From positions 1 through 35,268 of IMG/VR virus record IMGVR_UViG_2778261214_000028: a DNA stretch of 35,268 nt. One strand, given 5' to 3'. Made by a program: the position numbers. The DNA comes from a virus. Taxonomy: Duplodnaviria > Heunggongvirae > Uroviricota > Caudoviricetes. Shown here one piece after another: positions 12,001 to 15,000 of this stretch (position 1 is its first letter; each line of letters starts with the position of its first letter).

Positions 12001-15000
12001 TTGCACACAAGGTATCGGGGAAATACCGTGGCGTGGCAAAGCTTGAAGGAAATACTAAGGCAAAGGTACTGCAAGTGCTCGCAACATTCGCTTATGCGGA
12101 TTATTGCCGTAGTGCCGCGACGCCGGGCGCAAGATGCAGAGATTGTCACGGTACAGGCCGTGCGGTTGATATAGCAAAAACAGAGCAGTGGGGGAGAGTT
12201 GTTGAGAAAGAGTGCGGAAGATGCAAAGGCGTCGGCTATTCAAGGATGCCAGCAAGTGCCGCATATCGCGCTGTAACGATGCTAATCCCAAACCTTACTC
12301 AACCCACCTGGTCACGCACTGTTAAGCCGCTGTATGACGCTCTGGTGGTGCAATGCCACAAGGAAGAGTCAATCGCAGACAACATTTTGAACGCGGTCAC
12401 ACGTTAGCAGCATGATTGCCACGGATGGCAACATATTAACGGCATGATATTGACTTATTGAATAAAGTTGGGTAAATTTGACCCAACGATGGGTTAATTC
12501 GCTCGTTGTGGTAGTGAGATAAAAAGAGGCGGCGCTTACTACCGATTCCGCCTAGTTGGTCACTTCGACGTATCGTCTGGAACTCCAACCATCGCAGGCT
12601 GAGAGGTCTGCAAAATGCAATCCCGAAACAGTTCGCAGGTAATAGTTAGAGCCTGCATAACGGTTTCGGGATTTTTTATATCTGTGTAACAGGTAAGAGC
12701 ATTCTCCCTTATGGGGCTTGGCTTAAATGCACCGAGTGCTCTTATCGTTGTGGCAGCACAACGATAGTTTTCGTCAGAGTTGGCGACTTTGCGGTTTTTT
12801 AGAAACTGACCACAAAGATAAATGCAAACGATGATGTTGTTCTGATGGCGGCGTAATAGCCTGTAAGTCAGCAAGGTCTTCCGACTCCTTGTAAACAAAT
12901 TCGGCGCACTGGCCCGGTGTGATTAATAATGGGCACACAACAGGTAAGAGCATTAAAGAACTGGCAAAGAGCTTAACGGTCTGCGAAAGCATTTCTTAGT
13001 GGCACAACTGGCCGGTACAACTGAGTGCTCTTTCCGGTGTGGTGAATGCGCAGGCTGATGCGCGCAGGAGAGCTTCGGAAGAACAAGGTGCCTGTATACA
13101 AGCCGGAGATCAGCGCCGGCCACCACAGCCAAATCCACCCAGAGCAAAACCGTTGTTCATCCTTACCATTCACTCAGTATTTTGGGCTACACCATCAGCC
13201 CATTTTTTAAAGCGTACTTCCACCAAGAACCAGACCTAACCAACTCATTGCTGACACTCTGTGGATACGGTTGTCTAGTACGCTTTAAAAAAGAAAACCC
13301 AGCATCAATGGCTGGGCTTCGTGATATGAGCGGCATGTATTGTTGGCGCAATCCACGCCTGATTTGCTCATGAATGCGGTCACGAAAAAACCCGTTACAA
13401 ATCAACCGTAACCCGGATTTGTTCAAGCGACCATATCCATAATTCCTAATTTGAACAGATCCCCTTCTGGGGGTAAGACATGAAGATGCCAGAAAAACAT
13501 GACCTGTTAGCCGCTATTCTCGCGGCAAAGGAACAAGGCATCGGGGCAATCCTTGCGTTTGCAATGGCGTACCTTCGCGGCAGATATAATGGCGGTGCGT
13601 TTACAAAAACAGTAATCGACGCAACGATGTGTGCCATTATCGCCTGGTTCATTCGTGACCTTCTCGACTTCGCCGGACTAAGTAGCAATCTCGCTTATAT
13701 AACGAGCGTGTTCATCGGCTACATCGGTACTGACTCGATTGGTTCGCTTATCAAACGCTTCGCTGCTAAAAAAGCCGGAGTAGAAGATGGTGGAAATCAA
13801 TAATCAACGCAAGGCGTTCCTCGATATGCTGGCGTGGTCAGAGGGAACAGATAATGGACGGCAGAAAACCAGAAATCATGGTTATGACGTCATTGTTGGC
13901 GGAGAGCTATTCACTGATTACTCCGATCATCCTCGCAAACTTGTCACGCTAAACCCAAAACTCAAATCAACAGCCGCCGGACGTTACCAGCTTCTTTCCC
14001 GTTGGTGGGATGCCTATCGTAAGCAGCTTGGCCTGAAAGACTTCTCTCCCAAAAGCCAGGACGCTGTTGCGCTGCAGCAGATTAAAGAGCGTGGCGCTTT
14101 GCCGATGATTGATCGCGGTGATATTCGTCAGGCAATCGACCGTTGCAGCAATATCTGGGCTTCACTGCCGGGCGCTGGTTATGGTCAGTTCGAGCATAAG
14201 GCTGACAGCCTGATTGCAAAATTCAAAGAAGCGGGCGGAACGGTCAGAGAGATTGAGGTATGAGCAGAGTCACCGCGATTATCTCCGCTCTGGTTATCTG
14301 CATCATCGTCTGCCTGTCATGGGCTGTTAATCATTACCGTGATAACGCCATGACCTACAAAGAGCAGCGCGATAAAGCCACATCCATCATCGCTGATATG
14401 CAGAAGCGTCAACGTGATGTAGCAGAACTCGACGCCAGATACACAAAGGAGCTTGCTGATGCTAACGCTACTATCGAAAGCCTTCGTGCTGATGTTTCTG
14501 CTGGTCGTAAGCGCCTGCAAGTCGCCGCCACCAGTGCAAAGTCAACGACCGGAGCCAGCAGCATGGGCGATGGAGAAAGCCCAAGACTTACAGCAGATGC
14601 TGAACTCAATTATTACCGTCTCCGAAGTGGAATCGACAGGATAACCGCGCAGGTTAACTACCTGCAGGAGTACATCAGGACTCAGTGCCTGAAATAATTT
14701 TTTTGCAAATCACAAAGTCCATTTAATGAGCCTCGCGATGCGGGGCTTTTTTTACATCTGAATTTCACAGCGCATCTCACGCGCATATTACATCACCCGA
14801 GCCTTTCAGAAAGTTGAGCCTGAGAACTGCCGTATATGGTGGCGACCATCTCGGGGCGGCTTTTCTGTGAGACAGGCTCACTTTCTAAAAGGTAAAGACG
14901 CTATGAATCATCAATTGGCTAATCTCGATTTCCGGGACATGGTGGTTGTTTCTGGTGATCGCGTGATCACAACCTCCCGCAAGGTAGCAGCTTACTTCGA

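Follow-up and report, generated by a model that had tools for sequence, protein, structure and literature searches.

A phage-borne RNA cassette with a probable tmRNA-derived tag template downstream of tR' in an HK620-like prophage

Introduction

To our knowledge, transfer-messenger RNA (tmRNA) is universal in bacteria, with its tag template fixed inside a tRNA-like domain (TLD). Here we consider the spacer between the late terminator tR' and the holin gene S in IMG/VR virus record IMGVR_UViG_2778261214_000028 (Caudoviricetes; the whole stretch of 35,268 nucleotides that was analysed is called ‘the window’), and we propose that the approximately 400 bp by which it exceeds the spacer of lambda are probably a non-canonical, tmRNA-derived RNA cassette, consisting of a module that would serve as a tag template, bracketing hairpins with arms termed P and P', and a tRNA-like cloverleaf.

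Two described architectures come closest: the two-piece tmRNAs (tmRNA_permuted RF04321, alpha_tmRNA RF01849 and beta_tmRNA RF01850) and the one-piece SsrA of E. coli (363 nt, tag ANDENYALAA). For phages, a 2014 census by the authors of the tmRNA Website confined its ssrA entries to mycobacteriophages, Bacillus phage G and DS6A, with none in enterobacterial phages (PMC4131195). Bxz1, Cali, Catera and other mycobacteriophages, along with Bacillus phage G, carry canonical tmRNAs that are found by standard tools, whereas mycobacteriophage DS6A has a TLD-only fragment, a kind of molecule that strongly inhibits tmRNA (PMC4131195). The module described here is the converse of that in DS6A, being a template only, and is found in enterobacterial phages. 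The genome of HK620, to which the prophage of the window is akin, has been public since 2001; a full-text literature search of incomplete coverage returned no description of the element, with four of the tag peptide strings appearing in no paper, and phage genome papers that used ARAGORN report no tmRNA, consistent with our own negative ARAGORN results.

In lambdoid (Stx) phages, the stretch from pR'/tR' to the lysis or toxin genes holds tRNA genes as cargo, and the spacer was rightly identified as a cargo site of this kind in an earlier reading of this DNA (the original prediction), which saw in it a roughly 250-bp partial duplication that might be a scar of cargo exchange or might encode a small RNA (sRNA). 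The cassette shares with tRNA cargo and tRNA clusters the same slot in the lambdoid late operon, the same strand and presumptive co-transcription with the late genes; its parts, in contrast, are not tRNAs.

Results

A probable ten-codon tag template in the spacer

Between two long hairpins lies a module of some 175 nt (12766-12938), laid out like the coding region of a tmRNA (Table 1). An Rfam scan of 12300-13600 at permissive settings gave two matches, both to tmRNA families and both on 12802-12905 (tmRNA_permuted, 26.3 bits, E = 0.004; beta_tmRNA, 17.2 bits, E = 0.006), and every relative tested in this way had a tmRNA-family match on its tag region. The template reads AUAAAU-GCA AAC GAU GAU GUU GUU CUG AUG GCG GCG UAA UAG (resume codon to second stop, 12824-12859); its open reading frame (ORF) was scored as having no in-frame start codon, with the sole AUG out of frame. 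In alignment A1, which comprises 84 distinct core sequences, the 5' motif GTTTTC and the resume context TAAAT-GCA are invariant in 84/84. The invariant U(-5) and A(-4) correspond to U85 and A86 of E. coli, where the sequence runs U85-A86-G-U-C and then G90, and where A86, nearly universal in tmRNAs, is the main frame-setting determinant (PMC2481249).

Pattern scans of IMG/VR yielded approximately 140 tag-module loci with 14 tag peptides (including ANDNVFLAVA, ANEEMYLAVA, ANDDVVLMAA, ANDDLMLMAA and ANDEQFLAVA, and also ANEERFLMAA), each exactly ten codons followed by a stop. The 33 tag-plus-stop columns of A1 contain no gap, as against 46 gapped columns elsewhere, and the stop codon is interchangeable (TAA in 75, TGA in eight, TAG in one). 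At tag positions 1, 2, 7 and 10 the residue never varies (A, N, L and A), position 3 is D or E, position 6 is hydrophobic or aromatic, and positions 8 and 9 are A/M and A/V respectively, with the remaining two frames stopping at varying positions. Judged from this alignment, the tag frame is under coding-type constraint, with peptide-like conservation while the nucleotides vary; it is this constraint that most weakens the competing explanations weighed below.

The likeness to two-piece tmRNAs is a detailed one. Their resume context, AUAAAU-GCAAACGA, is identical to that of the phage module; the permuted tags ANDERFLMAA and ANDNAFLMAA resemble the phage tags ANDDVVLMAA and ANEERFLMAA, all being of ten codons; and both have a stop codon within a helix, an H-type pseudoknot after the tag with a AACAGAAU-type linker, and a GUUU(U)CG motif near the 5' end. 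Other IMG/VR loci with the same 14-nt resume context are genuine permuted tmRNAs according to ARAGORN; in one of them the acceptor piece is of textbook form and the acceptor stem carries G3:U70. The phage core is collinear with the coding pieces of these loci, which run from a GGUUUCGAC-type motif through an A-rich linker and UAAAU-GCAAACGA to the tag and a pseudoknot. On our best reading of these sequences, the tag module is most like the coding piece of a two-piece (permuted) tmRNA. It differs in beginning at a D-loop-like motif, without the acceptor 5' strand (GGGGCUG); in having a self-contained cloverleaf downstream rather than an acceptor piece (T-arm, acceptor 3' strand and CCA) upstream; and in the distance from 5' motif to tag, which is approximately 50 nt as compared with 70-95 nt in permuted tmRNAs.

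Set against one-piece SsrA, the whole cassette is of similar length (approximately 366 nt) and has an SsrA-like order of elements, namely a candidate pseudoknot, U and A at -5/-4, GCA, an AND-type tag, a double stop within a helix, further pseudoknot-like elements and, close to a CCA end, a T-like hairpin. Unlike SsrA, it forms no acceptor stem from its 5' and 3' ends, has no G3:U70 pair and receives no ARAGORN call, and the phage tags end in L-(A/M)-(A/V)-A in place of A-L-A-A.

Table 1. Features of the window from Q to the lysis genes, with their coordinates
Feature	Position	Strand	Details and basis
Q gene	11784-12407		
pR' late promoter	12450-12478	+	TTGACT-17-TAAATT; promoter scan; inside the block 97.8% identical to lambda; homologous HK620 site annotated pR'
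Lambda-type tR' terminator, closing 6S-like leader	12619-12680	+	hairpin and U-run; inverted repeat 12619-12633/12659-12673, then TTTTTT
Junction hairpin 1	12692-12746	+	P arm GGTAAGAGCA (in 16-mer copy 1) with P' arm TGCTCTTATC (in 10-mer copy 1); 35-nt apical part
Linker hairpin	12747-12762	+	GTTGTG-GCAG-CACAAC; joins hairpin 1 to tag module; homologous hairpin in L045
Module 5' part	12766-12823	+	GTTTTC motif (AGTTTTCG in the window), PK1-like fold, frame-setting ATAAAT
Resume codon GCA, tag ANDDVVLMAA and TAA	12824-12856	+	10 codons; Rfam tmRNA-family matches; second in-frame stop TAG 12857-12859
Helix-5-like stem	12842-12871	+	CTGA/TCAG; encloses tag end and stop codons
H-type pseudoknot, PK2-like	12871-12904	+	stem 1 12871-12876/12887-12892; stem 2 12881-12884/12901-12904
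Hairpin, PK3-like position	12912-12934	+	GCCC/GGGC; near-invariant loop GGTGTGATTAATAAT (also given as GGUGUGAUUAAUAA)
Junction hairpin 2	12936-13041	+	CACAAC-A-GGTAAGAGCA (16-mer copy 2) with TGCTCTTTCC-GGTGTG (10-mer copy 2)
tRNA-like cloverleaf	13038-13131	+	94 nt ending GCCA; minimum free energy (MFE) fold, alifold consensus; TGTGGTG-AAT-(GCGCA GGCTGA TGCGC)-(38 nt)-(GCCGG AGATCAGCG CCGGC)-CACCACA-G-CCA
Acceptor-like stem	13038-13044/13121-13127	+	TGTGGTG/CACCACA; 7 bp
First hairpin (X1)	13048-13063	+	GCGCA-GGCTGA-TGCGC
T-like hairpin	13102-13120	+	GCCGG-AGATCAGCG-CCGGC; abuts acceptor-like stem; then G and CCA (13128-13131)
Intrinsic terminator	13183-13210	+	terminator scan; approximately the HK620-annotated ‘tQ, late transcription terminator’
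Intrinsic terminator	13285-13320	-	terminator scan; GAAGCCCAGCC..GCTGGGTTTT and T-run
S gene	13480-13803		followed by R, then Rz

Compensatory change in the folds of the module

At least five helices of the cassette vary in a compensatory manner. Covariation is strong in the predicted pseudoknot that follows the tag and resembles the second pseudoknot (PK2) of tmRNA: its two stems are 99.6% and 99.4% paired in A1, and five pairs change on both sides (UA 45/CG 39, GC 57/AU 22, AU 65/GC 19, GC 53/AU 31 and AU 70/GC 13), a covariation score reached by none of 500 shuffles, while slid partners pair only 30-60%. Its topology and its AACAGAAT-type linker agree with those of true permuted tmRNAs. The 4-bp helix-5-like stem (columns 82-85/108-111) is 99.7% paired, one of its pairs being GC in 57 sequences and AU in 27, and it too outscores every shuffle and every slid control.

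Upstream of the template, a first helix (columns 1-6/41-46) is 93.5% paired and a second stem (columns 25-29/52-56) 93.7% paired; both-side changes are limited to the second stem, where two pairs vary in this way and which is broken in some subfamilies. Together the two stems give moderate support to a PK1-like pseudoknot that could form here. At the PK3-like position the hairpin stem varies compensatorily in HC8A, L092 and SenASZ3, and a second pseudoknot stem is 83% paired in A1 with no double changes, such that this element is supported as a hairpin only.

The repeats as arms of two junction hairpins

The two exact repeats on which the original prediction was built are both present. The window contains exactly two copies of the 16-mer AACAGGTAAGAGCATT, one at 12688-12703 and the other at 12939-12954 (251 bp apart), and two matches with up to two mismatches were seen in none of 100 shuffles; the 10-mer GAGTGCTCTT likewise has exactly two copies, at 12734-12743 and 13023-13032. 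Chance would be expected to produce neither repeat. What they mark is not a duplication of some 250 bp, since self-blastn at word size 7 found in common to the two segments only the 16-mer (100% identity) and a 23-mer (83% identity); the approximately 230 nt separating the repeats are unrelated between the segments, and the spacing within the 16-mer/10-mer pairs differs (46 versus 84 nt). Each 16-mer is instead complementary to its own 10-mer, the two being the arms (P, GGTAAGAGCA; P', TGCTCTT(T/A)(C/T)C) of one of two long hairpins with unrelated interiors.

The MFE fold of the first hairpin has z = -4.08, with no equally stable fold among 200 shuffles; the same insert, with compensatory changes in its stem, is found in the Felix-like contig L094, and copies approximately 95% identical to this hairpin occur at about 264 P1-like plasmid places in E. 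coli genomes. Its last 5 nt, together with the linker hairpin, carry a terminator-like flag at 12742-12767. In the second hairpin 73 nt separate the arms (a 68-nt variable insert plus five flanking nucleotides). Among relatives the P/P' arms covary (AAGCTGC/GCAGCTT, AATGGCA/TGCTATT, AAGGGTA/TGCCCTT and AATGACA/TGTCATT) around inserts of approximately 35 to more than 77 nt.

Neither is the first copy an extra segment, as had been supposed: lambda has one such hairpin after tR' and HK620 has two, 252 bp apart, an arrangement kept in HK620, HK633 and many prophages. The distance from the Q stop to the S start is 1072 bp in the window, 1021 bp in HK620 and 676 bp in lambda, and the tR'-to-S spacer is, as was claimed, about twice that of lambda; the additional length is the structured-RNA cassette common to close relatives rather than duplicated DNA. 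Judged by the refuting condition put forward with the original prediction, the reading as a scar fails, since the spacer is equally long in close relatives and contains no internal duplication. The idea of cargo exchange does stand in one respect, in that mosaic joints were found at 12703 and 12762, while a discrete, conserved RNA cassette is not a scar; and the suggestion of an sRNA was sound insofar as an RNA product is plausible, with the cassette being far more specific than a generic sRNA.

A mosaic joint lies at the first hairpin. Positions 12300-12703 are 97.8% identical to lambda 44402-44805 (the end of Q, pR', qut, the 6S leader and tR'), a homology that ends precisely at the end of the first 16-mer, and homology to HK620 begins at 12762, with 94.3% identity to HK620 and HK633 across 12762-13600. 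The segment in between, 12704-12761, is from a third source and has its best matches in P1-like plasmids.

In lambda itself (NC_001416), the single P/P' hairpin lies directly after tR' at 44787-44862 (CACAAC-A-GGTAAGAGCA ... TGCTCTTTCC-GTTGTG) and is followed by a short, degenerate downstream unit (GTTGTGCTGAAT ... ACCGGAAGCAGAACCGGATCACCA), the whole stretch of approximately 44787-44905 falling inside and after orf-64; it looks like a cassette remnant in the reference phage. An integron attC-like reading of CACAAC...GTTGTG was also considered and dropped, as its core sites do not appear to fit RYYYAAC/GTTRRRY.

A tRNA-like cloverleaf downstream of the template

The predicted cloverleaf has an MFE z of -2.66, with no equally stable fold among 200 shuffles, and RNAalifold applied to 15 relatives returns the same acceptor stem, first hairpin and T-like hairpin. 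Covariation is found in the stems of the first hairpin (GCGTA/TACGT and ACGCA/TGCGT) and of the T-like hairpin (GCAGG/CCTGC, GTCGG/CCGAC, GTTGG/CCAAC and ACCGG/CCGGT), the latter having a 9-nt loop. Variants of the acceptor-like stem are half pairing-compatible and half incompatible, and because they split so evenly the case for this stem comes from complementarity and position alone. Within the cloverleaf we found no anticodon arm with a 7-nt loop, no canonical D- or T-loop, and no ARAGORN or Rfam RF00005 match. A mature 3' end at the ‘ACCA’ within CACCACA was judged the less likely option, as several relatives break that CCA, which favours the model with a 7-bp stem.

Hypervariability marks the central arm, at 23-162 nt. 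One common class, made up of at least five unrelated sequence families (the L005, L033, L046, L077 and L100 classes), nevertheless has an arm some 74 nt long, and this constancy suggests a constraint on size or shape; the L077 arm appears to fold as an H-type pseudoknot.

Distribution and gene-like behaviour

A distant blastn search with 12690-13370 as query, against 50,697 phage genomes, matched 764 phage records from at least six phage groups, with most matches covering 12763-12954. The carriers are lambdoids, 46-48-kb T1-like siphoviruses of Klebsiella and E. coli, Felix-O1-like phages, Ackermannviridae (Kuttervirus and Taipeivirus), Schitoviridae (N4-like), T5-like phages, Erwinia phages and P1-like phage-plasmids, and nearly all of their copies have either no annotation or the label ‘hypothetical protein’. 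Of 5426 complete E. coli genomes, 84 contain at least 80% of window 12680-13215; E2865 and 10_253, for example, match at 100%.

Copies are found within tRNA arrays, on the tRNA strand, including in virulent phages far from lysis cassettes; in Citrobacter phage Mordin, for example, the element sits between tRNA-Ile and tRNA-Arg. A perfect sigma-70 promoter (TTGACA-N17-TAnnnT) with its predicted start within a few nucleotides of the 5' motif, which is AGUUUUCG in most copies, accompanies 40 of 139 members, and because the promoter is placed at this motif the module behaves as a gene outside late operons; one type (S5) closes with its own terminator.

The units are also modular. Among approximately 129 members with enough flanking sequence, about 58 have the 3' hairpin motif of the cloverleaf downstream, while 49 have neither cloverleaf motifs nor hairpin P downstream, and 37 of these 49 have none of the four junction motifs. 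P1-like phage-plasmids show the opposite, with P hairpins and cloverleaf units but no tag module. Since the units recombine and occur apart, the hairpin arms fall at recombination joints, with module and cloverleaf separable.

One such phage-plasmid, pSJ_98 (NZ_CP011063.1; L248 1201-1900), has an array of P hairpins, including one with the window's hairpin-1 insert at approximately 95% identity, along with a cloverleaf unit ending CATCACA, a unit made up of a T-like hairpin, CGTTAGC-T-CCA, CGAAAC and GGAGC, and a terminator. Elsewhere, the tag module recurs upstream of tRNA-Arg(UCU), the decoder of the rare codons AGA/AGG (L033, L039, L046, L092, L125, L008 and L120), immediately so in Felix-like phages and at a greater distance, often with a tRNA-Met following it, in T1-like phages; this proximity hints at a shared anti-stalling function.

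Discussion

The missing tRNA-like domain

Several observations weigh against a tmRNA-derived tagging RNA. The Rfam matches fall short of the gathering thresholds (26.3 bits against a threshold of 47 for tmRNA_permuted, and 17.2 against 84 for beta_tmRNA), and close homology to E. coli SsrA was rejected, a global alignment giving only z = 2.5. ARAGORN calls no tmRNA in the window nor in 26 family members tested, and neither a canonical nor a permuted combination of T-arm, acceptor and CCA with a standard T-loop was found anywhere in the window. The cloverleaf has U3-A70 in place of the alanine identity pair G3:U70 and a variable discriminator, encodes CCA only in the window's subgroup, and lies 3' of the template rather than enclosing it; tag module and cloverleaf, moreover, each occur alone. 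A single-molecule tmRNA is unsupported because module and cloverleaf shuffle independently and show no cognate-specific pairing: a given type of 5' region is not tied to one type of variable arm, and a one-piece tmRNA with a helix-2-like link between 5' region and variable arm was rejected, the duplex energies being -16.05 for cognate pairs and -16.79 for non-cognate ones. The two-piece arrangement is not seen either, with lambda tR' and hairpin 1, and no acceptor piece, upstream of the module. Covariance-model and tRNA searches, which were among the checks put forward with the original prediction, end with a negative ARAGORN result and sub-threshold tmRNA matches on the tag region, no Rfam match being found in the rest of 12300-13600. 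The lack of a canonical TLD is the main obstacle, and because of it we file the module as a tmRNA-derived template and not as a member of the family.

Some relatives carry pieces that resemble parts of such a domain. In Mordin (L008 951-990) a permuted tRNA-like unit (T-arm GAAGG-TTCGATT-CCTTC, ACCCTTC-G-CCA and, 4 nt further on, its complement GAAGGGT) precedes the tag module by approximately 480 nt, three tRNA genes lying in between; it led ARAGORN to call a 750-nt ‘permuted tmRNA’ in which the homologous tag is read, and might be a real, dispersed acceptor piece. In the Felix-O1-like IMG/VR contigs L104 (approximately 1893-1975) and L094, the tRNA-Arg(UCU) of Mordin is replaced, shortly downstream of the tag module, by a tRNA-like gene without a D-arm on which ARAGORN is silent, with acceptor CGGGGCG/CGCCTCG including G3:U70, an ACCA end and an Arg-type anticodon loop (CTTCTAA). 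At 13 of 140 loci (L027, L037, L161 and others), a T-like hairpin with CGTYAGC-T-CCA, CGAAAC and GGAGC is found 255-265 nt beyond the resume codon, approximately the distance of a tmRNA 3' end; the AGCTCCA of these 13 loci equals the acceptor 3' strand of E. coli SsrA, and no matching 5' strand was found.

A model and its competitors

Synthesising the above, we suggest how the cassette might act. In a lysogen, transcription from pR' would halt at tR'; upon induction, Q-modified RNA polymerase would read through, giving abundant cassette RNA alongside that of the lysis and late genes. Both the hairpins and the tRNA-like element may then punctuate this RNA for processing (of the RNase P, RNase III or RNase E type) and stabilisation, so that stable small RNAs are set free, and the tag module would be used as a template on stalled ribosomes, such that nascent chains receive a phage tag (ANDDVVLMAA) and the ribosomes become available again at a time when translation capacity is limiting. 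The arms of the hairpins, being conserved, could double as recombination joints that shuffle modules among phages.

We also raise, more tentatively and as a possibility that we hold to be rather doubtful, that the cassette represents a new trans-translation architecture with its template outside the TLD. Delivery of the template might then depend on a split tmRNA with a non-alanine-type partner, on a hijacked host Ala-tmRNA/SmpB, or on direct loading into the mRNA channel, with P/P' acting as both processing and recombination joints of mobile, modular cassettes in lambdoid, T1-, Felix-O1-, Vi1-, N4- and P1-like elements.

Of the alternatives to a tmRNA-derived tagging cassette, the one that survives best, and which we nonetheless consider unlikely, is that these RNAs are decoys or inhibitors which mimic parts of host tmRNA (its template, pseudoknots, D-loop-like motif and tRNA-like fold). 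They would sequester SmpB, S1, RNase R or some defence factor that targets tmRNA, and so modulate or block trans-translation by the host, supplying no tag. A module without a chargeable TLD would suit such a role, as would the resemblance of the invariant 5' motif to the D-loop region, which in true tmRNAs comes after the acceptor strand, and the inhibitory TLD-only molecule of DS6A provides a precedent (PMC4131195); a decoy, however, needs no exact ten-codon frame, no interchange of stop codons and no peptide-like conservation of the form AN(D/E)...L(A/M)(A/V)A.

Less probable again is an element acting in cis on the late leader, in the processing, stability or anti-termination of the S-R-Rz mRNA and/or as a recombination boundary, with no RNA acting in trans. 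That lambda has a P/P' hairpin in the same place after tR', that the P arm ends exactly where the mosaic joint with lambda falls, that module and cloverleaf types recombine freely, and that the long stems would be plausible RNase III substrates all fit with this, but it does not account for modules in virulent phages far from the lysis cassette, within tRNA arrays and with promoters and terminators of their own, and it leaves the constraint on the tag ORF unexplained.

We regard as improbable to a further degree a decaying relic, in which a fragment of a bacterial or phage two-piece tmRNA gene was captured once, spread by recombination and is now functionless. The missing acceptor 5' strand and canonical TLD, the sub-threshold Rfam scores, and the state of lambda, which keeps only a degenerate hairpin remnant and a short T-like hairpin, are what such decay might leave; set against this are the invariant motifs, the compensatory changes, the absence of indels from the tag, the retention of its stops, and the presence of the module, with dedicated promoters, in hundreds of phages from unrelated families. 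A partial tandem duplication of about 250 bp as a cargo-exchange scar, prompted by two exact short repeats at a known cargo site, we consider very improbable indeed, given that the similarity of the repeats ends at 16-23 nt, that each is a hairpin arm, and that the arrangement is conserved in relatives.

A widespread template module without a TLD would be either a new form of the tmRNA system or a phage counter-measure to it. It also bears on a long-standing puzzle, namely why some lambdoid hybrids (lambda-immP22) depend on host tmRNA. Identification of the cassette also gives a name to a highly conserved but unannotated intergenic block found in the genomes of hundreds of therapeutic and model phages, and explains short conserved boundaries at lambdoid mosaic joints as the arms of RNA hairpins.

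Late leader, terminators and flanking genes

The window is an HK620-like (P22-like, Lederbergvirus) prophage, with 96.6% identity to HK620 across 61% of its first 25 kb. The pR'-to-tR' block immediately 3' of Q is a lambda-type late leader by sequence identity, in keeping with the lambda-like character originally ascribed to it. It was also correct that the spacer has no convincing ORF or tRNA: six ORFs of 63-112 aa in the region have no PHROG family match (nor does any ORF of at least 60 aa), HK620 annotates no coding sequence here, and ARAGORN calls no tRNA in the window.

HK620 has a strong terminator-like hairpin (AGCCCTGAGTTAATAGCTCGGGGCTTTTT; L001 1614-1645) directly 3' of qut, at the position of tR', and its record puts the late terminator approximately 600 bp further 3', beyond the RNA cassette. 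In the window, the plus-strand terminator that approximates to this late terminator overlaps a perfect 16-nt inverted repeat (13203-13218/13277-13292), which would fold as a large hairpin between two convergent terminators. An IsrJ-like sRNA on the minus strand (13285-13368) was considered and rejected, the lone Rfam match (isrJ, E = 1.2) aligning only at the terminator hairpin. That minus-strand hairpin (13320-13294, with its T-run extending to approximately 13285) shows compensatory stem changes in L097, and could mark where a small antisense transcript stops, upstream of S.

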